A stretch of DNA of 64,000 nucleotides from Candidatus Roizmanbacteria bacterium CG_4_9_14_0_2_um_filter_38_17. Lineage in GTDB: Bacteria; Patescibacteriota; Microgenomatia; GCA-00278855. A model generated the notes under the pieces. That model was given only the letters and a program-made list of their open reading frames with translations, made no database searches and was not told the DNA's origin. Within the stretch, counting starts at the first letter, position 1, and each line of letters opens with the position of its first letter. Below are positions 10,197-35,344 of the stretch, in pieces. The stretch lies in assembly GCA_002788855.1 (NCBI GenBank), contig PFSB01000006.1, positions 99,292 to 163,291 on the forward strand, given 5' to 3'. The translations under genes and the position numbers were made by a program.

Positions 10197-10484
10197 ATGC
10201 AGAGATCTGATTTATATAACAATACAAAAGATATTTTTTCTCATTATGGGGTTAAGAAAGCAGCAGTTTTTGGCTCGTATGCTCGTGGTGATAATAGAGA
10301 TGATAGTGATATTGACATTCTTGTTGAATTAGGTAGATCTATGGGTTTAATTGATTATTCTGGATTAAGGCTGGATTTACAGGATAGACTAGGGATGAAA
10401 GTAGATCTAGTTCAGTATAAAACAATAAAACCATCAATAAAGGAGTATATCTTAAAAGACGAAACTGTATTATTTCAAGCGTGA
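10197..10484 (+). CDS. Minimal nucleotidyltransferase (MNT) antitoxin of HEPN/MNT type II TA pair
   Basis: GSYARGD...DSDIDILV motif (GS-x9-Dx D Pol-beta NTase signature), 95 aa, 4-nt overlap with downstream HEPN gene. Confidence 0.75.
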   Translation: MQRSDLYNNTKDIFSHYGVKKAAVFGSYARGDNRDDSDIDILVELGRSMGLIDYSGLRLDLQDRLGMKVDLVQYKTIKPSIKEYILKDETVLFQA

Positions 10485-10807
10485 TGAAAATAGCTACTCC
10501 ATACATTGAGAATATTTTAGATTCAATTGTTCAGATTGAAAAATATTTAACTGAAATTAAATATGATAAAAAGTCTTTTCTAGAGAATATTGAAAAGCAA
10601 GATGCTGTTATTAGACGACTAGAAGTTATAGGTGAAGCTACAAAGAGACTAGAAGAAGATTATAAAAGCCAGTTTCCTAATGTTCCCTGGAAGAATATGG
10701 CAGGGATGAGAGATGTCCTAATTCACGACTATGACGAGGTGGATATTGACTTGGTTTGGGATACTGTAAGTAAAGATTTGGTTGTGCTCAAGGAAGCTAT
10801 TAAATAA
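10481..10807 (+). CDS. HEPN-domain toxin (HepT/DUF86 family)
   Basis: R-x4-H motif (RDVLIHDY) near C-terminus, 108 aa, coupled to MNT gene. Confidence 0.75.
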   Translation: MMKIATPYIENILDSIVQIEKYLTEIKYDKKSFLENIEKQDAVIRRLEVIGEATKRLEEDYKSQFPNVPWKNMAGMRDVLIHDYDEVDIDLVWDTVSKDLVVLKEAIK

Positions 10808-16707: not shown

Positions 16708-17244
16708 ATGCGAATAGGAGTAGATATTTCACAAGTTGTGTATTCTGGTACGGGAGTAGGTGAATACACTAAAAGATTAATAGTTAATCTTGTAAAGAAC
16801 GATACGAAGAATGAGTATGTGTTGTTTTTTTCAAGCTTAAGAAGAAAACTACCAGATTCTATAGCTAAGATCCAGAATGAAAACGTAAGCATCAAGAGGT
16901 TTTATCTTCCACCTACTTTATTAGATATACTCTGGAATCGTTTGGGCATATTTCCGATTGAATGGTTTATAGGAAAAGTAGACGTCTTTATTTCCAGTGA
17001 CTGGACGCAGCCGAGCTCTCGCTTGGCTAAACTAGTAACAGTAGTACATGATCTTTCTCCATTAAAGTTCCCCCAAGAGCACCACCCTTTAATAGTAAAT
17101 GTTCATAAACGAAGACTAGATAAAGTAAAAAAACTCTGTAGCATGATAATTTGCGATAGTAAGGCAACTAAACAAGACTTAGTTGAAATGTTAGGTATTA
17201 GTGAATCAGGTGTAAAAGTTGTTTATCCTGGAGGGAAACTATGA
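16708..17244 (+). CDS. GT4 N-terminal-domain-only protein, truncated tandem paralog of 17241..18347
   Basis: MRIGVDISQVVYSGTGVGEYTKRL... aligns to N-terminal half of next gene (MMLIGVDGNEANQDTRVGIGRYAMEL...), both reaching K-VV-YPG; lacks the C-terminal EX7E glycos_transf_1 domain. Confidence 0.5.
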   Translation: MRIGVDISQVVYSGTGVGEYTKRLIVNLVKNDTKNEYVLFFSSLRRKLPDSIAKIQNENVSIKRFYLPPTLLDILWNRLGIFPIEWFIGKVDVFISSDWTQPSSRLAKLVTVVHDLSPLKFPQEHHPLIVNVHKRRLDKVKKLCSMIICDSKATKQDLVEMLGISESGVKVVYPGGKL

Positions 17245-18347
17245 TGTTAATAGGTGTTGATGGTAATGAGGCTAATCAAGACACAAGGGTAGGAATTGGT
17301 AGGTATGCGATGGAACTGCTATGGCAGTTCTACAATTTTCAAATACCAAATATCAAACTCCAAATTTATTTAAAAGATAAACCGAGAGGCCATATGCCTA
17401 AAGAGAAAGATGGGTGGGAATATAAAATTGTTGGTCCTCGAGCGTTTTGGACACAAATAGGTCTACCAATTGATCTATTTTTAGACAAAAATAGACCAGA
17501 TATATTCTGGACACCAACACATTATGCTCCGCGTTTTTGCCCCGTCCCAAGTATTGTATCGATCATGGACACTTCGTATCTACACTATCCAGAAATGTTT
17601 AAGAAAAGAGATCTATATCAATTGACGAGTTGGAGCAAATATTCAATAAATAACGCAGCTATGGTTTTGACTATCAGTAAAGCAGCAAGAGCTGATATAA
17701 TTAAGTTCTATAATGTTGATCCGACAAAAGTAGTGGTTACTTATCCGGGGATTGTAATGAATAAAAATATACTAACGAATAAGATTTTAGCTAAATATGG
17801 AATTAAGCCCAACTTTATTCTGTATGTTGGCACGCTTCAGCCACGCAAGAATTTAGTTCGCTTAATAGAGGCATTTGGTCTGTTGGAAAATAAGACGTTG
17901 CAGTTAGTTATAGTTGGAAAAAAAGGTTGGTTGTTTGACGAGATATTTACAAAAGTAAATGAGCTAGGACTGGAAGATAGAGTTATTTTTACAGGATTTG
18001 TGCCGGACGAAGAACTTTCAAGCTTCTATCAAGAAGCCAAGCTAATTACTTTAGTAAGTCTGTATGAGGGATTTGGGTTACCACCTCTTGAGGCGATGAG
18101 TTATGGTACGCCAGCTGTAGTTTCAAATGTCTCTAGTTTGCCGGAGATTGTTGGTGAGGCGGGTATTTTAGTTAATCCAGAGGATTCATCAGATATAGCC
18201 TCCGGAATAACGAAGGCTCTTACTATGTCTGATTCGGCTTATAATAAGCAAAGGGAGCTGGCAAAAGCACAAGCAGCTAAGTTTAATTGGAGTGACACAG
18301 CTAGAGAGACGCTTCAAGTATTGCAAAGTGTAGTTGGGAATATATAA
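17241..18347 (+). CDS. GT4 family glycosyltransferase
   Basis: C-terminal EGFGLPPLEAMSYGTPAVVS (glycos_transf_1 EX7E region). Confidence 0.75.
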   Translation: MMLIGVDGNEANQDTRVGIGRYAMELLWQFYNFQIPNIKLQIYLKDKPRGHMPKEKDGWEYKIVGPRAFWTQIGLPIDLFLDKNRPDIFWTPTHYAPRFCPVPSIVSIMDTSYLHYPEMFKKRDLYQLTSWSKYSINNAAMVLTISKAARADIIKFYNVDPTKVVVTYPGIVMNKNILTNKILAKYGIKPNFILYVGTLQPRKNLVRLIEAFGLLENKTLQLVIVGKKGWLFDEIFTKVNELGLEDRVIFTGFVPDEELSSFYQEAKLITLVSLYEGFGLPPLEAMSYGTPAVVSNVSSLPEIVGEAGILVNPEDSSDIASGITKALTMSDSAYNKQRELAKAQAAKFNWSDTARETLQVLQSVVGNI

Positions 18348-18364
18348 AGATCGGATCTTTATTA
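18341..18364. repeat. REP-A palindrome (TATATAAAGATC-G-GATCTTTATTA)
   Basis: Near-perfect 11/12-bp-arm hairpin; same element flanks RAYT at 34619 and 35345. Confidence 0.7.
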
Positions 18365-18369
18365 ATTAT

Positions 18370-18963
18370 ATGAAAGATAAATATGGAGATAAATTAAGTT
18401 CAGGTGAGGTTCTACAAAAAGGAATGAATAGGATAGATGGTATTCTATTGGATCTAGAACTTATGATTCTACGCTGGATTGGGCACGTACCATTTCACAG
18501 TTTCCGTAAGCTCTTCTATAGACTTTCGGGTATGAAAATAGGCAAGGGCTCGAATATTCACATGTGGGCTTGTTTTTTTGAGCCAGCTGGAATATCAATA
18601 GGAGAAGACACAATTGTCGGAAATAATGTATTTTTAGATGGTAGGGCTCCGATCACTCTGGGCAATCATGTAGACGTTGCCGCGGAAGTAATGATTTATT
18701 CGTCCCAACATGATATTGATGATCCAAAATTCAAAGCAGTATTTAAACCAGTGAATATTGGAAATTATGTATTTATTGGACCCAGAGCTATTATTTTACC
18801 AGGTGTGACGATAGGAGAAGGAGCAATAGTTGCCGCGGGAGCAGTTGTGTCAAAAGACGTAGCTCCTTTTACTGTTGTAGGAGGTGTTCCGGCTATTAAT
18901 ATACGTGATAGGAAACTTGTGGACCCTCAATACATACTTGGACGTGCGCGTAATTTTCAATAA
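18370..18963 (+). CDS. Hexapeptide-repeat (left-handed beta-helix) acetyltransferase
   Basis: Multiple [LIV]-G-x4 hexapeptides (IGNYVFIGPRAIILPGVTIGEGAIVAAGAVV); start reassigned to ATG 18370 because track start 18334 lies inside REP-A palindrome. Confidence 0.7.
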   Translation: MKDKYGDKLSSGEVLQKGMNRIDGILLDLELMILRWIGHVPFHSFRKLFYRLSGMKIGKGSNIHMWACFFEPAGISIGEDTIVGNNVFLDGRAPITLGNHVDVAAEVMIYSSQHDIDDPKFKAVFKPVNIGNYVFIGPRAIILPGVTIGEGAIVAAGAVVSKDVAPFTVVGGVPAINIRDRKLVDPQYILGRARNFQ

Positions 18964-19835
18964 TGGACCTTTCGATAATAATCTTAAGCTACAATACAGT
19001 AAAGCTACTAGAAGAATGTCTCCAGTCTGTGTTTTTCGGTCTGCAAAACTCTAATCTAAGATTTGAGCTTATCGTGGTGGATAATGCGTCAACCGATGAC
19101 AGCGTAGCAATGGTAGATAAGCAGTTTAAAGCTGTAAAGCTCATAGAAAGCAAAAAAAATATGGGATATTCCAAAGCAAACAATTTAGCAGCTCGCAGGG
19201 CAAAGGGTAAATATTTACTTTTTCTTAATTCAGATATAGTTGTATTAGATAGTGCGATAGATAAACTTCATCGCTTTATTGATCAGAATGTTGATGCTAG
19301 TATTGCAGGAGGCAAACTGTTAAATACTGGTGGAAAATCAGCGCAACCTTCCTGTGGACCATTTTATTCATTACCTGTATCGTTTGGTGTATTATTCTTG
19401 CGTGGTGATCACTGGGGATTAACAAGATATTCACCAGACGTGGTTAAAAAAGTAGATTGGGTTTCTGGGGCTTGCTTAATGTTAGAAAAAGATATTTTTA
19501 ATAAGATCGGTGGATTTGATGAATCGATTTTCATGTATATGGATGAGATAGATATTCTTTATAGGGCTTCTAAAAAAGGATACCGGACATACTTTTATCC
19601 CGATGCAAAGTTTATTCATCATGGAGCTGCAAGCTCAAAAAGCAATCGTGCTCCGGTAATTAATATATTTAAGGGTCTGGTGTATTTTTATAGGAAGCAT
19701 CATAAGGGTGCAAACTTGTTGGTTCTTCAACTAATGTTATTGTTGAAAGGATTATTAGGTATAATAGTTGGTATGTTGGTGCGTAATAGGAATATGCGGA
19801 TAAGTTATAAGCAAGCAATGCGGGAAGCAATATGA
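18963..19835 (+). CDS. GT2 family glycosyltransferase (polyprenol-phosphate sugar synthase-like)
   Basis: LSIIILSYNTVKLLEECL...VVDNASTDDS, DxD-containing GT-A fold; C-terminal hydrophobic helix. Confidence 0.75.
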   Translation: MDLSIIILSYNTVKLLEECLQSVFFGLQNSNLRFELIVVDNASTDDSVAMVDKQFKAVKLIESKKNMGYSKANNLAARRAKGKYLLFLNSDIVVLDSAIDKLHRFIDQNVDASIAGGKLLNTGGKSAQPSCGPFYSLPVSFGVLFLRGDHWGLTRYSPDVVKKVDWVSGACLMLEKDIFNKIGGFDESIFMYMDEIDILYRASKKGYRTYFYPDAKFIHHGAASSKSNRAPVINIFKGLVYFYRKHHKGANLLVLQLMLLLKGLLGIIVGMLVRNRNMRISYKQAMREAI

Positions 19836-22800
19836 TGAAAAAATGGCTAAATTGGTTAGATGACAATATCTTAAAAGTGGTGGTGGTTTTCTTGATTGCA
19901 TTTATTCCACTGTATCCAAAATTTCCTTTATTAGATCTGAAGAATACCTGGGTATATATTCGTTGGGATGATATTGTAATTGCTCTTTCTAGTTTAATAT
20001 TTGGTATTCAGGTTTTGCGTTGGAAAGTAACGCTAAAAACTCCTCTCACAAAGCCAATCGCTCTGTACTGGATAGCTGGATTGTTAACAACCATATATGC
20101 TCTGTTTTTTATTTTGGGAAGCTTGCCTCATGTTTTCCCAAACTTGTCAGTTTTGCATTACCTGCGTCGAATTGAATATATGGTGGTATTTTTTATTGCA
20201 TTTAATAGCATAAAGTCAAAATCCGATGTTAAGTTGTATTTAATAACATTATGTTTGACGGTTTTTGCGATTATTATATATGCAGTAGGACAAAGATTCG
20301 CTGGATTTCCAGCAGTAATAACGATGAATGAAGAGTTTGCTAAAGGTAAGCTCCTTTATCTACCACCGACTGCGCGAATTACAGCAACATTTGCTGGGCA
20401 CTATGATTTGGCGGCTTATATGGTGCTTGTTATTCCTGTTATATTGGCGGCAATATTTTCTGTAAAACGAATTAGTTTAAAGATAGGACTGACGCTATTA
20501 TCTACATTTTCGTATATTGTGTTGCTGTTTACGGAGTCTAGAGTCTCAATCGCGGCATATTTTTTAGCGGTTAGTTCTACCATGATCTTTATGCGAAAGA
20601 AATTACTTCTTATACCGATATTAATTATAAGTTTTGTGCTAATGAATAATCTATCTGGCTCTTCTGAGAGATTATATAAAACATTTCGAATAAGAGATGT
20701 TGCTTTTAATATGGAAACAGGGCAACCTATAGCCGCAGTTGAGGATATAGACAAAGAAACAGGAATAGCTATTGCTGAATCACAGGAAGTTACCAAAGAA
20801 AGACTGCCGGTAGGATCAGGATTTATAGGATTACCTGGAGGAGGAGGAAGTGGAGGCGGAGGTAATAGTGCTGGTTCAGGTTTATTAAGTAGGTATGAGC
20901 CGAGCGAGAGAATTGAAGTTCGCCAATTAACATATAAAACATACGCTACTCAAGAGCTTGCGGCTACAGGTGGAGCAAAACTGGCGACGGTTTCTGGGAG
21001 GTTTTTGATACGCAAAGCTTTAGTTTATGACATTTCATTTACAACGCGATTTCAAGGTGAATGGCCACGAGCAATGGATGCTTTCCGTCGTAATCCCATC
21101 CTTGGTAGTGGTTTCTCTACCATAAGTCTAGCAACAGATAATGATTACTATCGAATGCTAGGGGAGACAGGAATCTTAGGAACCTTGACTTTTCTAGGGG
21201 TTTTCTTTGCCGCTGGAGTAGTGATTATGCGTAGCTATAAAAAAGTGGATCATAAGCTTTCTAGAAATTTTGCGTTAGGCATAGCTGGGGGGATTATTGG
21301 CTTAGCATTTAATGCACTTCTTATTGATGTATTTGAAGCTTCAAAGATTGCATACACACTCTGGATATTGATGGGGTTAGGATTGGGTGCTTTGGTGGTT
21401 AGTTATAAGGGTAAGTTTAATTATCTAAAGGAGCTAATAAGGTTAATCATCTCGAAACCTGTGTTAATTGTTGGACTTTTGACAATTGGTTTAGTTTCCT
21501 TTCTACCGTTTCTGAAAAATTATTTTACAGGTGATGATTTTACGTGGTTACGATGGGCAGCAGAAGATGGATTTGAGGATAGTTTGGCGTACTTTTTATA
21601 TGCAGATGGGTTCTTTTATCGACCATTGCAAAAATTGCTGTATCTAGTGATGTTTAATGTTTTTTGGCTGCAGCCTATGGGGTATCATTTCGTGAGTCTA
21701 GTGGTTCATCTTACTGCAACTGTAGGAGTGTATTTATTGAGCGATCAGCTTATAAAAAACAGGCGCTTAGCCCTTGTTCCAGCCTTTATTTTTCTTTTTC
21801 TAGCAAGTAATTCAGAGTCCATATTTTGGGCTTCTTCACTGGGTAATATGTTAGCTGTGATGACTATGGTGTGGTCTACCTATCTATATAGTCAGGCAAG
21901 ATTACATAATAAAATATTCCTGGGTGTTTTGGTGTTTGTCTTAAATATTATTGCAATGCTGGCCTATGAGGGAGGGATTACGGCTCCACTATTATTAGTT
22001 TTGTGGGAGTTAATATATGGAAGTCGTAAGATATGGCGTTTAATACCTAACTTGTTATTAATGCCAGCGTATGTAGTAGCGAGATATTTTGCTTCTGCGC
22101 ATGGGTTAGCTGGTGACTATAACTATAACTGGTTAAAATTACCAGTTAATGTTGTTGGTAATGCCTTGGCGTATCTAGTTATGTTTGTGACGGGACCACG
22201 CTGGGCAGGTGATTGGTTTAATAGCCTAAGATATCTTTTAAATAGCGAGGTTAAAACAATGATAGCTGTTACAGTCCTAGTTGCAATGTCTGGACTGATA
22301 TTTATTACTGTGATGATTAGACGCAGACAGTATGTTCCTAAGCTACTTTTGTTTGGAATTGGATATTCCATTATTGCTCTAATGCCATTTTTAGGATTGG
22401 GTAATGTTAGCATAAGGTATAGTTATTTGGCCGCACCTGGCTTTGCAATAGTATATATCTATGTTCTTAAGATGGCTTATGATCAGCTTAGAAAAGTTAA
22501 TTTTTTGCTTGCAATAATTGTCACAAGTTTTATATTTATTGCGACACTTAGCTTTAATTATCGACAGCTTGGAGAGTCTAATAGGGACTGGGTTCAGGCT
22601 GGTGAGATAGTCCAGAACACTCTGTTGAGTTTGAAGAATAAATATTTCCCTTTTGCTAGTAAAGGACGTTTTTACTTTGTAGATAGACCAATTCGATATG
22701 GTACAGCTTGGGTGTTTCCAGTTGGGTTAGCTGATGCTTTTTGGCATAGTTGGCAAGATCCACGTTTAGAAATCCACGAAGTTTCTTCAATTGGCGAGGG

Positions 22801-22918
22801 ATTTAGACTTGCTGATACTGCGGGTAATTCATATGTATTTATCTTTCGCGATGGAAAAATAGAATTGGTTAAGCATGAAATAGTGAAATTTGAAAAAGAG
22901 TTTGTTATTGTTGAATGA
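19832..22918 (+). CDS. Fusion membrane protein: Wzy_C (O-antigen ligase/polymerase)-like domain, Gly-rich linker, and C-terminal ArnT/PMT-like GT-C domain with soluble tail (1028 aa)
   Basis: GSGFSTISLATDNDYYRMLGETGILGT matches Wzy_C H-N-x-Y-L-x4-E-x-G-x-x-G motif; GLPGGGGSGGGGNSAGSG linker; second domain with TGDDFTWL and YRPLQKLLY (DE...KPPL-like) motifs and about 12 TM helices. Confidence 0.5.
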   Translation: MMKKWLNWLDDNILKVVVVFLIAFIPLYPKFPLLDLKNTWVYIRWDDIVIALSSLIFGIQVLRWKVTLKTPLTKPIALYWIAGLLTTIYALFFILGSLPHVFPNLSVLHYLRRIEYMVVFFIAFNSIKSKSDVKLYLITLCLTVFAIIIYAVGQRFAGFPAVITMNEEFAKGKLLYLPPTARITATFAGHYDLAAYMVLVIPVILAAIFSVKRISLKIGLTLLSTFSYIVLLFTESRVSIAAYFLAVSSTMIFMRKKLLLIPILIISFVLMNNLSGSSERLYKTFRIRDVAFNMETGQPIAAVEDIDKETGIAIAESQEVTKERLPVGSGFIGLPGGGGSGGGGNSAGSGLLSRYEPSERIEVRQLTYKTYATQELAATGGAKLATVSGRFLIRKALVYDISFTTRFQGEWPRAMDAFRRNPILGSGFSTISLATDNDYYRMLGETGILGTLTFLGVFFAAGVVIMRSYKKVDHKLSRNFALGIAGGIIGLAFNALLIDVFEASKIAYTLWILMGLGLGALVVSYKGKFNYLKELIRLIISKPVLIVGLLTIGLVSFLPFLKNYFTGDDFTWLRWAAEDGFEDSLAYFLYADGFFYRPLQKLLYLVMFNVFWLQPMGYHFVSLVVHLTATVGVYLLSDQLIKNRRLALVPAFIFLFLASNSESIFWASSLGNMLAVMTMVWSTYLYSQARLHNKIFLGVLVFVLNIIAMLAYEGGITAPLLLVLWELIYGSRKIWRLIPNLLLMPAYVVARYFASAHGLAGDYNYNWLKLPVNVVGNALAYLVMFVTGPRWAGDWFNSLRYLLNSEVKTMIAVTVLVAMSGLIFITVMIRRRQYVPKLLLFGIGYSIIALMPFLGLGNVSIRYSYLAAPGFAIVYIYVLKMAYDQLRKVNFLLAIIVTSFIFIATLSFNYRQLGESNRDWVQAGEIVQNTLLSLKNKYFPFASKGRFYFVDRPIRYGTAWVFPVGLADAFWHSWQDPRLEIHEVSSIGEGFRLADTAGNSYVFIFRDGKIELVKHEIVKFEKEFVIVE

Positions 22919-24327
22919 AATACAGGATAGCGCTGCTAATAATTCTAATTTTGGCGGTGGTATTGAGATTACGCGGAATAAATAGTCCGGTTGCAGACTG
23001 GCACTCTTGGCGTCAGGCAGATACCGCAGCTGTAGCGCGAAACTTTGAGAAGTTTGGAGTCGATGTTCTTCATCCTCGTTATGATGATTTGTCTAATATA
23101 TCCTCTGGTCTGGACAATCCGATGGGTTGGAGAATGGTGGAGTTTCCTATCTACCAGTTTGTAGCAGTTGGCTTAAAACAAGCGTTTGGTGTATGGTCAA
23201 TTGAGGTATGGCTCAGATTAATAAGTATATCTTTCTCAACTGGATCTGTACTGCTGATTTATCTTCTTGGGGTCCATGTGGTAAATAAACGAGTAGGACT
23301 GATGTCTGCATTAGGCTACGGAGTTTTTCCGTACTCTGTATATTATGGTAGAGTAATTTTACCTGAAGCAACAGCGGTCTTCTTAGCATTGCTATCTATT
23401 TACCTTTTAATTCGTGTGAAGAGTAACTTAGTAGCAGTGATTTCATCTGGGGTTGTTGGAGCACTTGTGCTACTGGTTAAGCCAACAGCTGCTTTTATCA
23501 TGTTGCCGATGATATATTTTGCTTGGGTTAGATTTAAAGGTATTAGGGGTATCTTTTCAATTTGGCCATATCTTTTGGCTATCTTAATGTTTGTTCCATT
23601 TATCTGGTGGAGAAACTGGATAGCTTCATATCCCGAAGGTATTCCCGCGAACATGTGGTTATTAAATGGTGATGGAATCCGATTAAAAGGTGCGTGGTTT
23701 TACTGGTTATTCGGAGAGCGAATAGCTAAATTAATACTTGGATACTGGGGAGTTGTTCCTCTAGCAATGGGAGTTTTGTGGATGCTAACTAATTCAAAAC
23801 TAAAGCCATTGCTCTGGTTTGTAGTGGGGGCTGGAATATATCTGGTTGTATTCGCAACAGGTAATGTTAAGCACGACTATTATCAAGTGATGATATTGCC
23901 TGCTCTTTTCTTTGCTGTGGCTGTAGGTATTGAGTATCTTATAAAAGATAAAAAAACCTATGTCGAGCGATTTGTTTCTTACGCTTTTGTAATAGTTATT
24001 ATGGGATTGTCAGTAGTTCTTTCTTGGCACGAAATTCGGACATATTACTGGATTAATAATATGAAAATGGTTGAGGTGGGTAAAGTGGTTGATAATTTAT
24101 TGCCCAGCGATGCAAAAGTCATAGCACCGTACGGTGGAGATACGGCTTTTTTGTATCAGACTAATCGCGCGGGTTGGCCAATAGGGTTTGAAATAGAAGA
24201 TAAAATAGAAAAAGGGGCAACTGCCTATGTTTCAATTGATCCATTAGATATAGAGCCTAGAACGCTTGCTGAAAAATATACAGTTGTTGAAGAAGGGGAA
24301 GGGTATATTATTATTTCGCTAAAATGA
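22915..24327 (+). CDS. ArnT/PMT-like GT-C glycosyltransferase
   Basis: N-terminal TM followed by loop ADWHSWRQADTAAVARNF (acidic/Arg loop as in PMT_2), about 11 TM helices, C-terminal soluble tail. Confidence 0.5.
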   Translation: MKYRIALLIILILAVVLRLRGINSPVADWHSWRQADTAAVARNFEKFGVDVLHPRYDDLSNISSGLDNPMGWRMVEFPIYQFVAVGLKQAFGVWSIEVWLRLISISFSTGSVLLIYLLGVHVVNKRVGLMSALGYGVFPYSVYYGRVILPEATAVFLALLSIYLLIRVKSNLVAVISSGVVGALVLLVKPTAAFIMLPMIYFAWVRFKGIRGIFSIWPYLLAILMFVPFIWWRNWIASYPEGIPANMWLLNGDGIRLKGAWFYWLFGERIAKLILGYWGVVPLAMGVLWMLTNSKLKPLLWFVVGAGIYLVVFATGNVKHDYYQVMILPALFFAVAVGIEYLIKDKKTYVERFVSYAFVIVIMGLSVVLSWHEIRTYYWINNMKMVEVGKVVDNLLPSDAKVIAPYGGDTAFLYQTNRAGWPIGFEIEDKIEKGATAYVSIDPLDIEPRTLAEKYTVVEEGEGYIIISLK

Positions 24328-25499
24328 AAATTCTATTTGTCACTTATGATCTACCGTATCCACTTGATGCGGGAGGAAAAGTTCGTGCATATAACTTAAT
24401 AAAGGAACTAGCTAAAGAGAATGAGGTGACATTGTTTTCTTACTACCGTGATAACTCTCAGCTAAGTTATGTGGATGAACTGCGTAAATACTGTGCTAAC
24501 GTTCATCTCTTCAAGCGAGTAGCTGTATTTTCACTAAAGCATATAGTTAATACGATTTTGCATCCAAATCTCACTGCGCATATCTCACATTACTACCACT
24601 CCGGTCTTAGCCAAGAGCTGGATAAAGAATTACAAACTGGCATCTACGACCTACTACATCTGGAATCATTCTATACAAGTCATCTCTTGGGAGATTACAA
24701 CGTTACCCAGGTTTTGGGCACAGAAAATATTGAATGGAAGATATATCAAGGGCATTTCGAGATGAAATCTTTTACTAGTAGATTTCCACTGCAACTGGAA
24801 GCTTTTCGAACAAGGATGTTTGAGCAGTCTAGTTGGAAAAAAGCCGACGCGTTACTTGCGGTTTGCCTGTCTGATAAGGCTACAATTAGCGAACATACTA
24901 CGAAATCAGTGTACGAGATTCCAAATGGAGTGGATATTGATTATTTTTGCTACGAAAGTCCAACCATAGATATAAATAAGTTAAAGTTATTGTATGTAGG
25001 AGATTATGCCTATCTTCAGAATAGTGATGCAATTAGCTGGTTGTTAAAAGATATATACCCAGCAATAAGAGCCAAGTATCCTAATTCAACATTGACTATA
25101 GTTGGCAAGAATATTCCAGAGAATCTTGAAAAAAGCTATGGTGTAACTATCCAAAGAGATGTTGAAGATATTCGTGAAGTATATTCCGATGCAGATATGC
25201 TGCTTGCACCGCTTCGTATAAGCTCGGGAACTCAGTTTAAGATACTTGAGGCAATGGCTACTGGTGTAATTGTGCTTACAACGCCTACGGGGATACAGGG
25301 ATTAAATGCTAAACCCGGAAAGGAACTTGTTGTATTTAAAGATAAGAGAGATGTAGCATTGGCAATAGAAAATATTCTAAAGTCTCAAAATACAGCTGAA
25401 GAGATGTCCAAAAGAGCAAGAGAACTTGTTGAGAAAGAGTATAGCTGGAATATGATAGGCTCAAAATTAAGATCAATTTATAAAAATTTAGTGAAATGA
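24324..25499 (+). CDS. GT4 family glycosyltransferase
   Basis: C-terminal FKILEAMATGVIVLTT (glycos_transf_1). Confidence 0.7.
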   Translation: MKILFVTYDLPYPLDAGGKVRAYNLIKELAKENEVTLFSYYRDNSQLSYVDELRKYCANVHLFKRVAVFSLKHIVNTILHPNLTAHISHYYHSGLSQELDKELQTGIYDLLHLESFYTSHLLGDYNVTQVLGTENIEWKIYQGHFEMKSFTSRFPLQLEAFRTRMFEQSSWKKADALLAVCLSDKATISEHTTKSVYEIPNGVDIDYFCYESPTIDINKLKLLYVGDYAYLQNSDAISWLLKDIYPAIRAKYPNSTLTIVGKNIPENLEKSYGVTIQRDVEDIREVYSDADMLLAPLRISSGTQFKILEAMATGVIVLTTPTGIQGLNAKPGKELVVFKDKRDVALAIENILKSQNTAEEMSKRARELVEKEYSWNMIGSKLRSIYKNLVK

Positions 25500-26386
25500 A
25501 ATTGGCAGTAATTATTGTTAGTTATAATACAAAACCGTATCTTCAGAAGTGTTTAAAGACGTTAAGCAAGAGTAATTATCCTACTAAAGACTTATCTATT
25601 GTTGTGGTAGATAATGCGTCAACAGATGGAACAGTAGCGGAGCTTAAAGTGTTATTTCAAGATGTTACATGGGTTAAGCTGGATGAAAATACCGGATTTT
25701 CCCGTGCCAATAATATAGGAATTAAGCGAGCCGGTGAGGCTGATTATTATCTGTTTCTAAATCCCGACACAGAAGTTTTACCCAGTGGGTTGTCTAAGAT
25801 GGTCAGTTATCTAGAAAGCAATCCAGATGTGGGTATTTTAACTCCGTATGTTAAATTAACAGATGGTTTAATTGACGATGCATGTCATCGGGGATTTCCA
25901 ACTCCCTGGAATGCTTTTTGTCATTTTTCTGGATTAGCTTCGATGTTCCCACGCTCGTTGCTGTTTAATGGTTATCACTTAGGCTATAGGAGTCTAGATA
26001 AGATACACGAAATTGATGCGTGCGTAGGCGCGGCGATGTTAGTAAGAAAAAAAGTAGGCGAAGATATAGGCTGGTGGGATGAAGATTTTTTTTGGTATGG
26101 TGAAGATCTGGATTTTTGTTATAAGGCCAAAGAGAGAGGAAATAAGATAGTATTTAATCCCGATGTTGTAGTACTGCATCATAAGGGAGTATCTGGAGGA
26201 ATTAAAAAGAAGTCTAGTAATTATTCAAACGTAGATAGATTGACTAAAAAAAGGGCACAGGAAGCAAGATTCGATGCAATGATTATTTTTTATAAGAAAC
26301 ACTATACTAACAAGTATCCCAAAATATTAACATTAATTGTTACTTCGTTTATTCGAATAATCAAAGTAATTAAAGTGGGTATATGA
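25496..26386 (+). CDS. GT2 family glycosyltransferase
   Basis: LAVIIVSYNTKPYLQKCL...VVVDNASTDGT. Confidence 0.75.
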   Translation: MKLAVIIVSYNTKPYLQKCLKTLSKSNYPTKDLSIVVVDNASTDGTVAELKVLFQDVTWVKLDENTGFSRANNIGIKRAGEADYYLFLNPDTEVLPSGLSKMVSYLESNPDVGILTPYVKLTDGLIDDACHRGFPTPWNAFCHFSGLASMFPRSLLFNGYHLGYRSLDKIHEIDACVGAAMLVRKKVGEDIGWWDEDFFWYGEDLDFCYKAKERGNKIVFNPDVVVLHHKGVSGGIKKKSSNYSNVDRLTKKRAQEARFDAMIIFYKKHYTNKYPKILTLIVTSFIRIIKVIKVGI

Positions 26387-27429
26387 GAATTGGAATTGAT
26401 ACTCGCTTACAAAATGAGAGCGGTGTAGGTAGATACATACGGAATTTATTGCTTAATCTTAGGAAGCTTAATAGCGGCCATGAATATGTTTCAATTAGCC
26501 CAGATATTAAATGGCACTCAATTAAAGAGCAGCTTATAATGCCATTTTTATTAGGAAATAAATATAACTTGGTTCATTTTCCTTACTTCAATGTCCCTAT
26601 TTTTTACTCTGGAAAATATGTGATGACTGTACACGATCTTATTATTAATACTTATGCTACAGGTAGAGCAAGTACGCTGAATCCAGTATTGTATTGGTTG
26701 AAGAGAATGGCATATTTATTGGTATTAAGTCTCGCGGTGAGACGCGCATGCAGAGTAATTGTGCCAAGTTTTGCTGTTAAAGAACAGTTGCTTCAAGCAT
26801 ATAATATAGGACCAGAGAAAATATCTGTAATATATGAAGGTGTTGATAAGAAACTAAGCGAAGCTACTGGAGGAGGAGATGTTTTAAATAGATATCAACT
26901 TAAAGGTCAGCAATATTTGTTATATGTGGGCAATGCATACCCACATAAAAATCTTGAAACTCTGCTTGTGACTTTTGATAAGATTAGAGAGGGTAATCTT
27001 AAGTTGATACTAGTTGGTAAGTATGACTATTTTTACAACCAGTTCATTGCTGCTAACATGAATAGAAATATTATTTTTACAGGATATGTTGAAGATAATG
27101 AGCTGGCAATTTTGTATAGAGAAGCTTTGTTACTTATCCAGCCTTCGCTAATGGAGGGGTTTAGTTTACCCACAGTCGAAGCAATGGCCAGAGGTTGCCC
27201 TGTTCTTTGCAGTGATATTCCTGTTCATCGTGAAATTTGTCTTGATGCTGCTTTATATTTTAAATCCCAAGATTCTCAAGATCTATATAGTAAGCTTATG
27301 GAGCTGATTGCAGATAGAGACAAACGTAATAATCTCATAGAAAAAGGTAAAGCTAGAGTAACAATATTCTCATGGGAGGATACGGCTGCTTTGACCCTTC
27401 AAACATATGAAAGTTGCTTTAGTTTATGA
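26383..27429 (+). CDS. GT4 family glycosyltransferase
   Basis: EGFSLPTVEAMARGCPVLCSDIPVHREI (EX7E). Confidence 0.75.
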   Translation: MRIGIDTRLQNESGVGRYIRNLLLNLRKLNSGHEYVSISPDIKWHSIKEQLIMPFLLGNKYNLVHFPYFNVPIFYSGKYVMTVHDLIINTYATGRASTLNPVLYWLKRMAYLLVLSLAVRRACRVIVPSFAVKEQLLQAYNIGPEKISVIYEGVDKKLSEATGGGDVLNRYQLKGQQYLLYVGNAYPHKNLETLLVTFDKIREGNLKLILVGKYDYFYNQFIAANMNRNIIFTGYVEDNELAILYREALLLIQPSLMEGFSLPTVEAMARGCPVLCSDIPVHREICLDAALYFKSQDSQDLYSKLMELIADRDKRNNLIEKGKARVTIFSWEDTAALTLQTYESCFSL

Positions 27430-28516
27430 TCGGGTAAACAAATGGGGAGGCGCTGAAAGAGTGTTGCTAGCTCTTCATGAGATTTGGCCAGATGCACCTT
27501 TGTTTACAGGTGTATACAATCCGCAGTCTGCGAAATGGGCTGATGTTTTTGAAGTTAAGCCCTCGCTGATAGATAAGTTAATATTTACTCGTACACGCCA
27601 TGAGCTGTTTGCTTGGCTGATGCCATTTGGTTTTGAAAACTTTTTATTTGATGATTATGATCTAGTTATATCAGTAACTTCAGCTGAGGCAAAAGGTATT
27701 ATAACTAAGCCCAAAACTCTCCATATTTGTTACTGTCTAACCCCAACTAGGTATTTATGGAGCAATGATAAGCAGTATCGAAATAGCATTCATCCAGCTA
27801 TTAGGTGGGTAGCCGATCCTGTGTTAACGTACCTTAGAAAATGGGATAAAGTGGCTGCCTCACGACCAGATGCTTATGTTGCTATTTCAGAGTATGTCAG
27901 TAACCGAATAAAGCGCTACTATAATCGAGACTCAGTAGTTATTTATCCCCCCGTATCACAGCTTGCAGACACCCATTCCAGGAGCGTGATACACACTCCT
28001 GAAATGGGTAAGGGTTATTATTTAGTTGTTAGTCGACTTGTTAAGTATAAAAAAGTGGATTTAGCGATAAAAGCGTGTGAGCAACTAAAACACTCGCTTG
28101 TGATTATTGGAACAGGATCAGAAAAGGACTACTTGCAGAAGTTAGCTGGTAATAATACAACTTTTATATCTGACGTGAATGATGGTGAGCTGGCTGGTTA
28201 TTATCAGAGTTGCAAAGCTCTCATAGCGCCGCAAGAGGAAGATTTTGGTTTGGTTGCCGCGGAAGCTCAGTCAATGGGTAAGCCGGTAATAACTTTTTAT
28301 AAAGGTGGAGTTAGTGAAATTGTGAAAGACGGAGTTACAGGTAAGTATTTTAATAAGCAGACGGTTGCCTCGCTTATAGAAGCCTTGGCAGACTTCGATG
28401 CATCTGTGTATAATAGCAAAGAAATAAGAAGCAAAAGTAAAAAATTTAGTAAACTTAACTTTATGCGTAAATTTGAAAAACATTCGTTGAGTATGTTAAA
28501 TACATACAATAGATAA
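27407..28516 (+). CDS. GT4 family glycosyltransferase
   Basis: FGLVAAEAQSMGKPVITFYKGGVSEIV (EX7E region). Confidence 0.7.
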   Translation: MKVALVYDRVNKWGGAERVLLALHEIWPDAPLFTGVYNPQSAKWADVFEVKPSLIDKLIFTRTRHELFAWLMPFGFENFLFDDYDLVISVTSAEAKGIITKPKTLHICYCLTPTRYLWSNDKQYRNSIHPAIRWVADPVLTYLRKWDKVAASRPDAYVAISEYVSNRIKRYYNRDSVVIYPPVSQLADTHSRSVIHTPEMGKGYYLVVSRLVKYKKVDLAIKACEQLKHSLVIIGTGSEKDYLQKLAGNNTTFISDVNDGELAGYYQSCKALIAPQEEDFGLVAAEAQSMGKPVITFYKGGVSEIVKDGVTGKYFNKQTVASLIEALADFDASVYNSKEIRSKSKKFSKLNFMRKFEKHSLSMLNTYNR

Positions 28517-28527
28517 ATACTAAACAT

Positions 28528-29610
28528 ATGAAAGCAGTAATTTTTGCAGGTGGTGTAGGAACAAGATTGTGGCCGCTGTCTAGAAAAAAATCCCCCAAAC
28601 AATTTGAGCAAATTGTAGGTAATAGCTCCACTCTTCAATTATCAGTTGAGCGTTTAACATCGAGTTTTACGCCTGAACAAATATATATATCTACAGGAAT
28701 GCCATATGTAGATATGGTCTCGGATCAGCTTCCAGATATACCTAAAGATAATATTATTGGTGAACCTGAAATGCGTGATGTGGGTCCAGCTGTTGGTTTA
28801 ATATCTGCGATCTTACGTAAAGATGCTCCTGGTGAGCCATTTGCAATATTATGGAGTGATCATTTGGTTAAAAATGTGAAGCTATTCAACCGTATCTTAG
28901 GAGTTGGTGGAAAATTAGTTGAAAAAGATAAAGACAGTATAGTCTTTATTGGTCAAACCCCACGCTTTGCTAGTGAAAACTTAGGATGGATAGAAAGAGA
29001 TAAAAAACAAAATGAGATAGAGGGGATAGATGTATATGGATTTAAAAGCTGGAAATATCGACCAGATAAAGTTACAGCAGATAAGTTTTTCAAGAGTGGT
29101 AAACATCTCTGGAATCTTGGTTATTTTGTTACGACACCAGAGTTTTTACTTAAGCAGTATAAAAAATATGTTCCAGAAATGTACGAAAAGCTCCAGAAAA
29201 TAGTCGAATTAAGAGGAAAAGCTGGGTATGAAAAAAGGCTTAAGGAGATATATCCAACTTTAGAAAAAATAAGCTTCGATAATGCAATCCTAGAAAAAAT
29301 AGAGACTGGAAATAGATATGTAATCGCGGAAGACATCGGGTGGAGCGATGTGGGTGCCTGGGAGGCTTTAAAAGAGGCATTAGAGGATGAGCCAGGGCAG
29401 AATATAACTAAGGGGAAGGTTATTATAAATAATTGCAGTGATAGCTTAATATATAGCTATACGGGTCAGACCGTTGCGGCCATAGATCTTGACCATATGA
29501 TGATTGTAAATACTGAAGATGTGCTCTTGATTTGTCCTAAAAAATCTACACCAAAAGTTAAAGAATTGGTGAATAGCTTAGTAGGCACGGATAATGATCA
29601 TCTTACATAA
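28528..29610 (+). CDS. manC: Mannose-1-phosphate guanylyltransferase (GDP-mannose pyrophosphorylase, no PMI domain)
   Basis: IFAGGVGTRLWPLSRKKSPKQF N-terminal NTP-transferase signature; 360 aa. Confidence 0.75.
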   Translation: MKAVIFAGGVGTRLWPLSRKKSPKQFEQIVGNSSTLQLSVERLTSSFTPEQIYISTGMPYVDMVSDQLPDIPKDNIIGEPEMRDVGPAVGLISAILRKDAPGEPFAILWSDHLVKNVKLFNRILGVGGKLVEKDKDSIVFIGQTPRFASENLGWIERDKKQNEIEGIDVYGFKSWKYRPDKVTADKFFKSGKHLWNLGYFVTTPEFLLKQYKKYVPEMYEKLQKIVELRGKAGYEKRLKEIYPTLEKISFDNAILEKIETGNRYVIAEDIGWSDVGAWEALKEALEDEPGQNITKGKVIINNCSDSLIYSYTGQTVAAIDLDHMMIVNTEDVLLICPKKSTPKVKELVNSLVGTDNDHLT

Positions 29611-29613
29611 ATA

Positions 29614-30249
29614 ATGTATCCCAAACTTAAACGCGTTTTTGATCTTGTTTGTACAACAATTTTAATGATTGTTTTTTTGCCCATTGCTTTGTTTACGGCA
29701 ATTGCTATTAAATTGGATACAAAGGGTCCAGTCTTTGCAGATACCCCAGAGCGAGTAGGAAAAAATGGTGTACCTTTTAAGATGTATAAATTTCGTTCAA
29801 TGATTATGGATGCTCATAATTTACTTAGAAAAGACCCCAAGTTGAGAGTATTATACGAGCAGTATAAAAAGAATAGTTACAAGTTGGTTGAAGATCCACG
29901 TGTAACAGTAGTGGGTAAGTTTATTCGTAAACATTCTGTTGACGAGCTTCCACAGCTAATCAATGTGATTCGTGGTGAGATGAGCTTAGTTGGTCCCAGA
30001 GCTTATTATCCTGACGAACTAAAGGATCAGCAAAAAAAATATCCACATACACAAAAATCTGTGCAGAAGGTACTTTCTATCAAACCAGGAATCACTGGTA
30101 TCTGGCAGGTATCAGGTAGGTCTGAGGTGAACTTTGATAAACGAATTGCTATGGATGCAAAGTATGCAAGTAAACGATCATTGTTGTATGATATTTCTAT
30201 TCTTCTTAAAACACCTTGGGCCATGATTGGTGGAAAAGGAGCGGTGTAA
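29614..30249 (+). CDS. Small initiating phosphoglycosyltransferase (bacterial sugar transferase, WbaP/WcaJ C-terminal-domain type)
   Basis: One N-terminal [10 protein letters not shown] and [21 protein letters not shown] motifs. Confidence 0.8.
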
Positions 30250-30251
30250 AT

Positions 30252-32219
30252 ATGGATTTTAAAAAAATAGAAATAAATAACCAACCAGAAGCTCAAGTTG
30301 AGACTAAAGGTTCAAGCAGAAGGAGACTTAAGGTGGGCTTTCCCAAGCTTAAATTCAGTAAAAAAACTGGAATAATCTTGACAGCTCTACTAGGAATTCC
30401 GCTTATATTACTAATTGTTTTGGGTGTAGTCGTGGGTATTCCAGCTCGCCAAATTTATGCAGATGCTAAAGTAGCTAAGGATCAACTTCAGGTAACCAAT
30501 GCAGCTATAAAAAAGCAAAATCTCAAAGATGCTAAAGAAAGCTTAAAAGACTCCAAAGACAAACTTACAGTTCTTAATGCTTCTGTTAGTAAGCTTAACT
30601 GGTTTGGATCCCTACCAGTTGTTGGTGCCTACCAAAAAGATTTGAAAAGTTTGGTGACAGCGGGGATAGCAGCTGTTGAGGGAGGTCAAATTGCGGTAGA
30701 TGCGATTGAGCCATATGCAGATTTATTAGGCTTAGAGGAAGGGACCTCATTTGTAAATAAATCTACCGAAGATCGCTTGCAAACAGCTGTGACGACAATA
30801 GGTAAACTGAGCCCAGCGTTAGATGAGATTGCAGGAAAATTGACTATTGTAAGAGATGAAATTGGGAGCATTGATCCAGCTAGATATCCAGAAAAGTACA
30901 AAGACCAGGAGGTAAGAGTTAAGATTGTAGACGCTAAGGCTCAAGTTAACGATCTAGCAGATCTGTTTATTGACGCGAAGCCATTTTTAACCGCGCTACC
31001 TGATCTAATGGGGGCAGACGAAGCAAAAACATATCTTTTCCTTTTTCAGAATGACAAAGAACTACGTCCAACGGGTGGCTTTATTACAGCCTATGCATAC
31101 TTCCGGATGCACAAGGGTAAAATTGAGGTAATTCGCTCAGATGATATCTACAATCTAGATAATGCTAGACGAAAGAAAGTTGCCGCTCCTGAAGAGCTAT
31201 TAAAATATCATAAAGAGGTCTATGAGCTAACCTTAAGAGACAGTAATTTATCTCCAGATTTTAGGGAATCAATGTTGTTATTTGAGGAGTTATATAGTGA
31301 TGTTTCGGGTAATTTGGAGATAGATGGAATCTTTGCTTTAGATACGCATATGTTGGCAGAGTCGATGAAAATTCTTGGTCCGATAAATGCATATGGTACA
31401 ACTTTTACAACTGAACCCGATGATCGTTGCGGTGGCTGTCCGCAAGTGGTGTATGAACTGGAGGAATATGCGGACAAACGAGTCGGCTATATACGAGAAA
31501 ATAGAAAAGATATTATTGGAGTATTAATGTCCCAAATTATGCAAAAAGCGTTAGGAGTATCTCCTGGTCAGTACTGGGGTCGATTGTTCCAGATGACACT
31601 TGACGAAGTTGGGCAGAAGCATTTTATTGCATATTTCCATGATAAAGACGCTCAAGCAGGAGCAGAGGCACTTAACTTTGCTGGCAGGATAAAGGATTTT
31701 GATGGAGATTACTTGCATGTTAATGATACTAACTTTGCTGGAGCAAAATCTAATATGTTTACAAATCATACGGTTGAACAAGAAATAGATATTGCTAAGG
31801 ATGGGACAGTTACAAAGACTTTAACCTTAAGTTATAAAAATACAGAACCAGGTTCTCCTGGTTGTAACTTAGAGCGCGGAGGCCTTTGTTTGAATGGATT
31901 GCTTAGAAACTGGGTACGTATTTACACACCAGAAGGATCCCAGCTTCTGGACTTTAAAGGTTCAGAGACCGATCCAGTGGAGAAGAATGAATTAGGAAAG
32001 ACGGTTTTTGAAGGATTCTTTACAGTGCGACCTGAGGGACAAGCGCAGCTAAAAGTTTCGTATAAGTTGCCGTTTAAGGTGAGCTCTACTGAGGACTATA
32101 ATATGTTAATTCAAAAACAAGCTGGTACAGAAGGTCATAAATATATTATTAAACTGAATGGTAAAATGGTTGAAGAGTTTGATCTTATTACAGATAAAGA
32201 ACTTCAACTCACCCTCTAG
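30252..32219 (+). CDS. Membrane-anchored extracytoplasmic protein, DUF4012-like
   Basis: Single N-terminal TM (GIILTALLGIPLILLIVLGVVVGI), coiled-coil region, conserved-looking RPTGGFITAYAYF segment; start set to ATG 30252. Confidence 0.4.
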   Translation: MDFKKIEINNQPEAQVETKGSSRRRLKVGFPKLKFSKKTGIILTALLGIPLILLIVLGVVVGIPARQIYADAKVAKDQLQVTNAAIKKQNLKDAKESLKDSKDKLTVLNASVSKLNWFGSLPVVGAYQKDLKSLVTAGIAAVEGGQIAVDAIEPYADLLGLEEGTSFVNKSTEDRLQTAVTTIGKLSPALDEIAGKLTIVRDEIGSIDPARYPEKYKDQEVRVKIVDAKAQVNDLADLFIDAKPFLTALPDLMGADEAKTYLFLFQNDKELRPTGGFITAYAYFRMHKGKIEVIRSDDIYNLDNARRKKVAAPEELLKYHKEVYELTLRDSNLSPDFRESMLLFEELYSDVSGNLEIDGIFALDTHMLAESMKILGPINAYGTTFTTEPDDRCGGCPQVVYELEEYADKRVGYIRENRKDIIGVLMSQIMQKALGVSPGQYWGRLFQMTLDEVGQKHFIAYFHDKDAQAGAEALNFAGRIKDFDGDYLHVNDTNFAGAKSNMFTNHTVEQEIDIAKDGTVTKTLTLSYKNTEPGSPGCNLERGGLCLNGLLRNWVRIYTPEGSQLLDFKGSETDPVEKNELGKTVFEGFFTVRPEGQAQLKVSYKLPFKVSSTEDYNMLIQKQAGTEGHKYIIKLNGKMVEEFDLITDKELQLTL

Positions 32220-34618: not shown

Positions 34619-34643
34619 CATATAAAGATCCGATCTTTATATA
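34619..34643. repeat. REP-A palindrome (CATATAAAGATC-C-GATCTTTATATG), inverted orientation
   Basis: Perfect 12-bp arms around single C. Confidence 0.75.
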
Positions 34644-35344
34644 TGATATTATTAGTTTGTATGAGACTAGTCAATTTTGTGAATGGTCAGGTTTATCACA
34701 TATATAACAGAGGTGTTCGCAAGGATTTACTTTTTTATAGAGATTCTGACTATGTGAGGTGGGAAAATCTTTTATCCTGGTGTTCTAACTATAGCTATCC
34801 ATTTAGTAGTTATGTTCAAGGGCTAAAATCGCTTAGTAAGGAGAAGGCTAGTCTTGATGCCTATCAAGAACGTATAGAAAAAGAATATCGTTACAGTCGG
34901 CCTCTTGTTAATATTCTTTGCTATATTGAGATGCCTAATCATTTTCACTTAGTTCTCGAGCAAAACGTTGAATCAGGCATTTCTTTGTTTATGCAAAAGC
35001 TGTCCATTGCGTATGCAATGTATCTTAATAGTAAATATGAGCTATCTGGGTCAGCTTTTCAAGGTAAATATAAGTTTGTACACGTAGAAACAGATGCTCA
35101 GCTAGTTCAGCTGTTAAAGTATATGTTACTTAATCCCGTAGTTGCACTCATAGTTTCAATTTTAAATCTAAAAAAATATAAATGGTCAGCACTTAAAGAG
35201 TATTTGGGAAATACTGACAAGATGATAGTCGACACAACCAAGTTGCCTAGTGTGTTTATAAACCCACAGGAGTTATTAAATTTTCTTAAAGAGGAGTCAG
35301 GCTCTGGATTTACAGCGGAACTTGGTTCACTAGTTATAGACTAA
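34643..35344 (+). mobile_element. REP-associated tyrosine transposase (RAYT; IS200-like Y1/HuH transposase) copy 1
   Basis: HuH motif MPNHFHLVL, C-terminal KYMLLNPV (variant of RAYT Y-x-H-x-N-P motif, His replaced by Leu); flanked by inverted REP-A hairpins; probable true start MRLVNF at 34661. Confidence 0.7.

Follow-up and report, generated by a model that had tools for sequence, protein, structure and literature searches.

A conserved Microgenomates gene joining WaaL/Wzy_C-type and PMT/ArnT-type glycosyltransferase modules in one polypeptide

In O-antigen ligases of the WaaL type (PF04932, CAZy family GT121; structures 7TPG/7TPJ), two arginines bind the diphosphate of undecaprenyl diphosphate and a histidine activates the acceptor (R191, R265, and H313 in 7TPG), while an aspartate or glutamate at the position of this histidine is typical of SEDS and related polymerase families (PMC10920833). 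The hallmark of GT-C glycosyltransferases is an acidic DxD or DD motif, located just past the first transmembrane (TM) helix in the first luminal loop and essential for activity (PMC6801728). A ligase joined to another glycosyltransferase is represented by WadA of Brucella and Mesorhizobium, in which a GT121 ligase is fused to a soluble GT25 enzyme adding the last core sugar; this fusion was read by the CAZy authors as coupled action (PMC10920833). Here we describe a gene that encodes a WaaL/Wzy_C-type module and a GT-C module in a single chain of 1028 amino acids (aa). It is located in a 64,000-nucleotide stretch (hereafter, the window) of the genome of Candidatus Roizmanbacteria bacterium CG_4_9_14_0_2_um_filter_38_17 (assembly GCA_002788855.1, contig PFSB01000006.1, positions 99,292 to 163,291), and was pointed out by an earlier reading made from the sequence alone (hereafter, the sequence-only reading).

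By analogy, WadA is the closest precedent in principle: there, too, a module of the ligase type shares one chain with another glycosyltransferase, which in WadA acts on the same acceptor. However, the partner in WadA is a soluble nucleotide-sugar GT25 enzyme, while the second module found here, a GT-C A-type domain, is polytopic (13 TM helices) and would be expected to take its sugar from a lipid-linked donor on the extracellular side. What is new here is that the partner in such a bimodular ligase-type enzyme is embedded in the membrane. In public databases, members of the fusion family are named “O-antigen ligase family protein” or “hypothetical protein”, and their C-terminal half carries no annotation. 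The sequence-only reading regarded such a fusion as undescribed, and a full-text literature search, which left most subscription journals outside its coverage, found no description of a Wzy_C and GT-C fusion or of its operon in candidate-phyla-radiation bacteria.

Continuity and distribution of the fusion gene

The gene and the parts of its product are located as follows:

19832..22918, + strand: whole fusion gene (open reading frame list; 1028 aa plus stop, ATG start, no interruption)
19832..21403, + strand: N module, residues 1-524, WaaL/Wzy_C-type (GT-C B-type), 12 TM helices, long outer loop between TM9 and TM10
21404..21454, + strand: inter-module linker, residues 525-541, short, predicted cytoplasmic, rich in lysine and arginine, with a model helix at 531-539
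21455..22642, + strand: membrane part of the C module, residues 542-937, divergent GT-C A-type (PMT/ArnT/STT3-like), 13 TM helices
22643..22915, + strand: C-terminal outer alpha/beta domain, residues 938-1028, by secondary structure, with invariant P953, W960, P963, G965, and W971

The neighbouring genes overlap the open reading frame (ORF) of the fusion by 4 nucleotides (nt) on both sides: the upstream GT2 gene ends, and the downstream gene begins, within ATGA-type overlaps, as expected in a tightly packed operon. About 5.8 billion proteins were searched, and 1517 relatives were identified among the scored candidates. The 120 best of them are 831-1084 aa long and 37-100% identical to the query, covering 94-100% of its length in 119 cases and 80% in one partial record. 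A 100%-identical protein is encoded on an independent Joint Genome Institute (JGI) contig, where the neighbours are also the same, and close relatives with 92% and 84% identity are likewise fused. Orthologous fusions are present in related genomes, where the sequence-only reading had proposed to look for them: a survey of GTDB representatives, with a single genome for each species, revealed relatives encoded in at least 597 stretches. The best 80 of these were inspected as loci; all of them match residues ~1-1015 of the query, i.e. its full length, and the stop-to-stop ORF comprises 981-1129 codons in 79 of the 80.

The sole interrupted fusion among the 80 loci (L028, 7995-11045) is broken at about residues 213-229, within the N module and off the domain boundary, and the break is probably a sequencing error or a pseudogene rather than a domain split.

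The single-polypeptide nature of the protein, as claimed by the sequence-only reading, is thus borne out by the continuous 1028-aa ORF, the full-length relatives, and the 79 unbroken loci. One could suppose that a missed stop or a frameshift had joined two adjacent genes in the course of sequencing or assembly, and the existence of split versions in other lineages (L084, L085, a JGI contig, and possibly L090; see below) would agree with this. However, judged from the assembled loci, neither a stop nor a frameshift separates the two halves in 79 of 80 cases, and the alignment of 40 orthologues contains no gaps at the junction (residues 525-541). Together with the full-length relatives, including the fused ones at 92% and 84% identity, and the identical protein on an independent contig, these data make a misassembly or frameshift uniting two genes very unlikely.

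The informative record titles among the relatives refer to Levyibacteriota, Gottesmanbacteria, Woesebacteria, Shapirobacteria, and Patescibacteria, that is, to Microgenomates lineages of candidate-phyla-radiation bacteria. L002, L004-L007, and many other metagenome-assembled genome records with a Microgenomates-type operon are titled “uncultured Gammaproteobacteria bacterium” (binchicken assemblies), and single ones Lysobacterales or Sulfotelmatobacter; these titles look like placeholders or binning errors and not like true taxonomy.

Architecture of the two modules

The AlphaFold2 model of the fusion protein (predicted local distance difference test, pLDDT, 80.7; predicted template modelling score, pTM, 0.79) was combined with the positive-inside rule, and 25 TM helices were predicted, with the N terminus inside and the C terminus outside. 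Short loops rich in lysine and arginine (residues 63-72, 127-130, 209-213, 254-256, 470-474, 525-541, 641-645, 689-694, 730-733, 831-836, and 888-890) fall on one side, while the C-terminal domain is on the opposite side, together with every conserved motif loop of the two modules. With its 12 helices, the N module would end on the cytoplasmic side, and the C module would therefore cross outward with its first helix, placing its DD motif outside the cell; on this model, the fusion appears topologically coherent. The linker at residues 525-541 coincides with the point where the split-gene variants stop and restart. The two halves are unrelated at the sequence level, and an internal duplication as their origin was rejected, as an hhalign comparison of the N half with the C half gave no match.

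The conserved and variable elements of the two modules are the following:

20531..20548, + strand: TESRVS turn between TM7 and TM8, residues 234-239; T234, S236, R237, and S239 invariant
20660..21025, + strand: variable beta-rich insert of the large outer loop, residues 277-398; strands by DSSP, low pLDDT at 319-385
20828-20881, + strand: Gly/Ser run GLPGGGGSGGGGNSAGSG, residues 333-350; lineage-specific low-complexity stretch within the variable insert
21041..21184, + strand: conserved outer-loop core with TTRFQGEW (R406) and D436-N-x-Y-x5-E445-x-G447-x-x-G450; invariant columns, Wzy_C match at residues 400-455
21104-21184, + strand: WaaL-motif segment GSGFSTISLATDNDYYRMLGETGILGT, residues 425-451
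21518..21673, + strand: first outer loop of the C module, residues 563-614, with TGDDF, two juxtamembrane helices, and FFYRPLxK; invariant columns

All motifs quoted in the sequence-only reading are present, namely TESRVS (234-239), GSGFSTISLATDNDYYRMLGETGILGT (425-451), TGDDF (566-570), and YRPLQKLLY (596-604). Both halves were assigned to families on the basis of orthologues and predicted structure, since the Pfam scores of the query itself are below the thresholds.

The N half is Wzy_C-like, as had been proposed. Matches to Wzy_C (PF04932) at E<=0.01 were found in 36 of 40 full-length orthologues, the best with an E-value of 3.1e-13, and many relatives carry a precomputed PF04932 assignment. 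The predicted structure has the fold of WaaL: it comprises 12 TM helices, a long extracytoplasmic loop is located close to its C terminus, and its structural score to WaaL is much above that to SEDS. In structure, WaaL is much closer to the N module than are SEDS proteins (RodA, FtsW) and Wzy-type polymerases; moreover, no partnership with a penicillin-binding protein (PBP) of the SEDS kind is apparent, and the division/cell-wall (dcw) cluster lies separately, further downstream in the window.

The outer-loop core is the most conserved segment of the protein, with a mean top-residue frequency of 0.85. We take the histidine motif of WaaL to be H-[NSQ]-x9-G-x-x-[GTY], and use it as a lead and not as a test. 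The sequence D436-N437-x-Y439-x5-E445-x-G447-x-x-G450 is in register with this motif, and its sole mismatch is the replacement of the histidine by aspartate. D436 is invariant in 40 orthologues, as are E445, G447, and G450. The match to the WaaL motif claimed by the sequence-only reading therefore holds in register at the other positions, but not at the histidine itself. R237 and R406 are likewise invariant among orthologues and located in predicted outer loops; they are candidates for the first and the second arginine that bind the diphosphate, respectively, by presumed equivalence to the arginines of WaaL. Catalytic residues were assigned by motif register and not by superposition, because no match to solved structures was obtained at the sequence level.

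The fusion further differs from WaaL in carrying the second, 13-TM enzyme and a beta-rich insert in the large loop, the length of which varies from 66 to 168 aa among homologues. This insert includes the pure Gly/Ser stretch which the sequence-only reading placed at 20821..20880 and considered a linker. The run is present in the large loop, about 7 nt away from that position (20828-20881); however, it belongs to a loop of the N module and is lineage-specific, with 52% gaps among homologues in the nearly coincident stretch 331-348, and its role as an inter-domain linker was rejected. The actual linker is the gap-free segment 525-541.

The assignment of the C half to the GT-C fold, ArnT/PMT-like in the earlier interpretation, was supported by structural matches and by the invariant DD motif. 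The predicted structure shows a GT-C fold with the conserved N-terminal membrane module. Structural comparison of the C half gave the highest score for Pmt4 (21.5), followed by ALG12 (18.6), AglB (18.5), Pmt2 (18.1), AftA (18.1), ArnT (18.0), STT3B (17.9), and PglB (16.0), and Foldseek with the full model agreed. Invariant D568-D569, six residues past the first TM helix (542-562), correspond to the acidic motif of GT-C A-type enzymes; they are followed by two short juxtamembrane helices in the model (569-578 and 581-589) and by invariant Y596, P598, and K601. The plan of the C-half model, with 13 helices and then an alpha/beta domain of about 90 residues, is the same as in ArnT and oligosaccharyltransferases. 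The soluble tail, thought by the sequence-only reading to comprise 150 aa, is limited to these ~90 residues (938-1028) according to the secondary structure of the model, and is shortened in the C proteins of split-gene variants.

At the sequence level, the likeness of the C module to PMT/ArnT/PMT_2 enzymes (GT39/GT83; Pmt4 9E61, ArnT 5F15) is barely detectable. Unlike in these enzymes, the C-terminal domain is neither MIR nor ArnT-like, and the module sits behind a Wzy_C module. Compared to AglB, PglB, and STT3, no WWDYG-type motif or large periplasmic domain of oligosaccharyltransferases was seen, and the C-terminal domain is much smaller. PMT_2 was matched by only two of 40 orthologues (best E-value 1e-6). 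An exhaustive search with the C-half profile gave 92,130, 52,142, and 1,880 cluster representatives at E-value cut-offs of 1e-3, 1e-10, and 1e-30, respectively. Among stand-alone matches (E ~1e-46 to 1e-51), P0228 (30.2 bits) and P0257 (29.9 bits) pass the PMT_2 cut-off of 26.1, which provides a transitive sequence link of the C half to the PMT_2 group; one stand-alone relative passing PMT_2 carries C-terminal TPR repeats. Alignment of the C-half profile with two neighbouring PMT_2 proteins by hhalign was collinear but insignificant (probability 1.5-2.8%), and the possibility that the C module is a recent duplicate of the neighbouring PMT_2 gene was rejected on this basis.

Invariant polar residues are found in predicted outer loops of both the N module (R237, R406, D436, E445) and the C module (D568, D569, K601, E662, D762, R862). 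Their number suggests that both modules are active.

The glycan operon, split variants, and genomic context

The fusion gene is part of an operon, the other members of which were assigned by Pfam/NCBIfam searches. Since each of the 80 related loci holds no more than 8 kb of flanking sequence, the counts of loci given for the genes downstream of the fusion are lower bounds.

16708-17244, + strand: half-GT4
17241-18347, + strand: GT4
18334-18963, + strand: WcaF-like hexapeptide acetyltransferase (75/80 related loci)
18963-19835, + strand: GT2, upstream of the fusion (73/80)
22915-24327, + strand: PMT_2 GT-C, directly downstream of the fusion (79/80)
24324-25499, + strand: GT4
25496-26386, + strand: GT2
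26383-27429, + strand: GT4
27407-28516, + strand: GT4
28528-29610, + strand: mannose-1-phosphate guanylyltransferase
29614-30249, + strand: small Bac_transf polyprenyl-phosphate phosphoglycosyl transferase, WbaP/WcaJ catalytic domain (E=2e-71; at least 51/80)
30216-32219, + strand: DUF4012 protein, 667 aa, closing the operon (at least 17/80)

The order and strand of these genes are retained almost without exception in the loci of 80 species, in which the fusion proteins are about 37% identical. The order of the upstream genes (16708..19835) is kept in 63-75 of the 80 loci; on the downstream side (22915..32219), the PMT_2 and DUF4012 genes mark the extremes (79 and 17 loci, respectively), and the others are found in 51-75. 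The presence of a priming transferase, six cytoplasmic glycosyltransferases, an O-acetyltransferase, and GDP-mannose synthesis suggests that the operon builds an undecaprenyl-diphosphate-linked oligosaccharide. In the conserved operon, neither a further Wzy_C gene nor a chain-length regulator was recognised, and no Wzy, WaaL, or LCP-type ligase is encoded separately. The half-GT4 gene (178 aa) consists of the N-terminal Rossmann half only (PF13439) and stands as a separate gene directly upstream of a complete GT4; its retention in 63 of 80 loci points to a conserved “half enzyme” and not a pseudogene.

In some lineages, the two modules are encoded by separate genes. In L084 and L085, originating from independent Logan samples, a 535-aa N-like gene ends with TAG and is followed, after 12 nt, by the ATG of a 467-aa C-like gene and then by the PMT_2 gene; the N-like gene matches the N-half profile over its full length with E=1e-156, and the C-like gene matches the C-half profile with E=2e-106. 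A JGI contig carries genes for GT4, GT4, an acetyltransferase, a 94-aa ORF, GT2, a 540-aa protein, a 480-aa C-like protein, PMT, GT4, and GT2, representing this operon with each module in a gene of its own. On a farmland contig (L090), a Wzy_C gene and a C-like gene overlap by 11 nt, as a result of either a genuine split or a frameshift, and the pair was counted as a possible split only. Several high-scoring “stand-alone” C-half matches of 527-541 aa were not counted as splits, being fragments or internal-Met calls of fused genes. The occurrence of the modules as adjacent genes in one lineage and as a fusion in another, at the same operon position, argues for their working together functionally.

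C-like genes also occur in other surroundings. In L082 (1984-7512), a GT2 gene and a further C-like paralogue, which stands alone, come after the fusion gene. The stand-alone C-like genes of two other loci are more distant: that of L087 (6001-7476), a GT-C gene, lies beside type IV pilus genes, and that of L089 (5069-7482) comes after a GT2 gene, the pair adjoining an ABC transporter. The conserved motifs of the C module are kept in stand-alone relatives, and the module is mobile between glycosylation contexts.

Other parts of the window contain the following features:

8513-9826: extra PMT_2 GT-C
10481-10807: HepT-like toxin
34643-35344: IS200-like Y1 transposase, just before the dcw start
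35428-38693: start of the division/cell-wall cluster (MraZ, MraW, class B PBP)

As the position of the transposase and the MraZ, MraW, and PBP genes shows, a few kb separate the glycan operon from the dcw genes downstream of it. The genes at 3174-6584 (1136 aa) and 7065-8513 (482 aa) encode large polytopic membrane proteins, both ending in a soluble part and neither assigned to a Pfam family; they may be further unannotated envelope glycosyltransferases or transport proteins. The 482-aa protein has a weak sub-threshold NCBIfam match to an MmpA-like lipid delivery protein, and in about 30 of the 80 related loci its gene immediately precedes the operon. Between this gene and the operon, the segment 8513-16511 has the appearance of an insertion specific to the lineage; none of its genes was matched in the flanking sequence, up to 8 kb, retrieved for the 80 loci. 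On the minus strand, it carries genes of an amine oxidase, a sulfatase-family protein, and a methyltransferase-like protein. Across the whole window, nearly all genes are on the + strand, the GC skew is positive in every 2-kb bin, and the cumulative skew rises monotonically, consistent with a single replichore and leading-strand coding.

Proposed function and alternative explanations

We consider it rather likely that the fusion protein is a bifunctional enzyme of the outer face of the membrane, performing two consecutive lipid-linked glycan transfers by two glycosyltransferase modules in one chain. The priming transferase and the cytoplasmic GT4 and GT2 enzymes would build an undecaprenyl-diphosphate-linked, O-acetylated, and probably mannose-containing oligosaccharide; upon its flipping, both steps performed by the fusion would take place outside the cell. 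In the N module, R237 and R406 could hold the undecaprenyl-diphosphate donor, and the diphosphate-linked glycan would be moved onto an acceptor, by ligation or polymerisation, with the aspartate acting as a base. The C module could perform a second transfer, from a polyprenyl-phosphate-linked donor, the target of which would again be this acceptor or the resulting product; the module would either form the acceptor sugar or decorate the product. Such a coupled or sequential transfer is plausible from comparative sequence data, and the existence of split-gene variants strengthens it.

A number of observations weigh against this proposal. Neither a flippase nor a polyprenyl-phosphate-sugar synthase was recognised in the conserved operon; assignment of its GT2 enzymes as GtrB/ArnC/DPM1-like synthases was unsupported, as NCBIfam gave sub-threshold matches to ordinary GT2s (MftF, EpsD, rhamnosyltransferase). 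The fusion protein matched no NCBIfam family, and no meaningful sequence match with solved structures was found with the full-length, C-half, or N-half profile. In the domain-wise profile search proposed by the sequence-only reading, Wzy_C scored only 18.2 bits on the query (E=0.0022, residues 400-455), below the gathering score of 31.7, and PMT_2 (PF13231) gave no match. In addition, the position of the acceptor-activating histidine (H313 in 7TPG) is occupied by D436.

The nature of the acceptor would also differ from that of WaaL, since Patescibacteria are not known to make lipid A-core, which is thus an unlikely acceptor. For this reason, and in view of the absence of the defining histidine, the fusion should not, strictly speaking, be classed among O-antigen ligases. 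A polymerase-like N module would agree better with the aspartate in place of histidine and with the absence of other polymerases, and a ligase with the structural score. Three versions stand, between which we cannot decide: the C module primes or decorates and the N module ligates; the N module polymerises and the C module ligates; or the modules act in a variant of protein O-glycosylation.

Taken further, the second version would make the N module a Wzy-type repeat-unit polymerase, and the C module a PglB/AglB-like oligosaccharyltransferase attaching the finished polymer to protein, lipid, or cell wall, so that the fusion would pass the polymer directly between the two sites. The aspartate at the WaaL histidine position, as in SEDS and Wzy-type polymerases (PMC10920833), the appearance of AglB, STT3, and PglB among the best structural matches of the C half, and the lack of a separate Wzy, WaaL, or LCP-type ligase in the conserved operon all speak for this possibility, which we nevertheless regard as doubtful. 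Unlikely, but of interest, is a scheme in which the PMT-like module sets the first sugar (e.g., mannose) on a protein or lipid acceptor and the WaaL-like module adds the oligosaccharide onto it, the fusion being the sole extracytoplasmic assembly enzyme of a lineage-defining Microgenomates envelope glycoconjugate; if true, this “prime and ligate” route would be a type of surface glycosylation pathway undescribed in any organism. One could also hypothesise that the C module is a catalytically dead GT-C domain which serves the N-terminal ligase only as a membrane scaffold or acceptor-binding domain. Its very weak similarity to known GT-C families, with PMT_2 matched in 2 of 40 orthologues and an insignificant alignment with the neighbours, would be explained in this way. 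However, among orthologues that are 28-48% identical in the C half, invariance extends beyond the DD motif to over 30 other residues, and the same motifs are retained in stand-alone relatives; since C-like genes without an N-like partner exist, the C module has a function of its own, and we find its inactivity quite improbable.

Candidate-phyla-radiation bacteria have tiny genomes, and their envelopes are almost uncharacterised. The assignment of the C half also bears on annotation: half of a protein named “O-antigen ligase family protein” is an unannotated GT-C enzyme, belonging to a family of tens of thousands of cluster representatives mostly missed by Pfam models. The fusion and its natural split forms predict that the WaaL/Wzy-type and PMT/ArnT-type classes cooperate on one substrate, and the protein offers structural work a single-chain target for the handover of a diphosphate-linked glycan between two membrane glycosyltransferases. 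The fusion probably assembles an uncharacterised envelope glycan, and the 13-gene operon around this 25-TM protein, the order of which is kept across hundreds of Microgenomates species, points to a core envelope function of the lineage.

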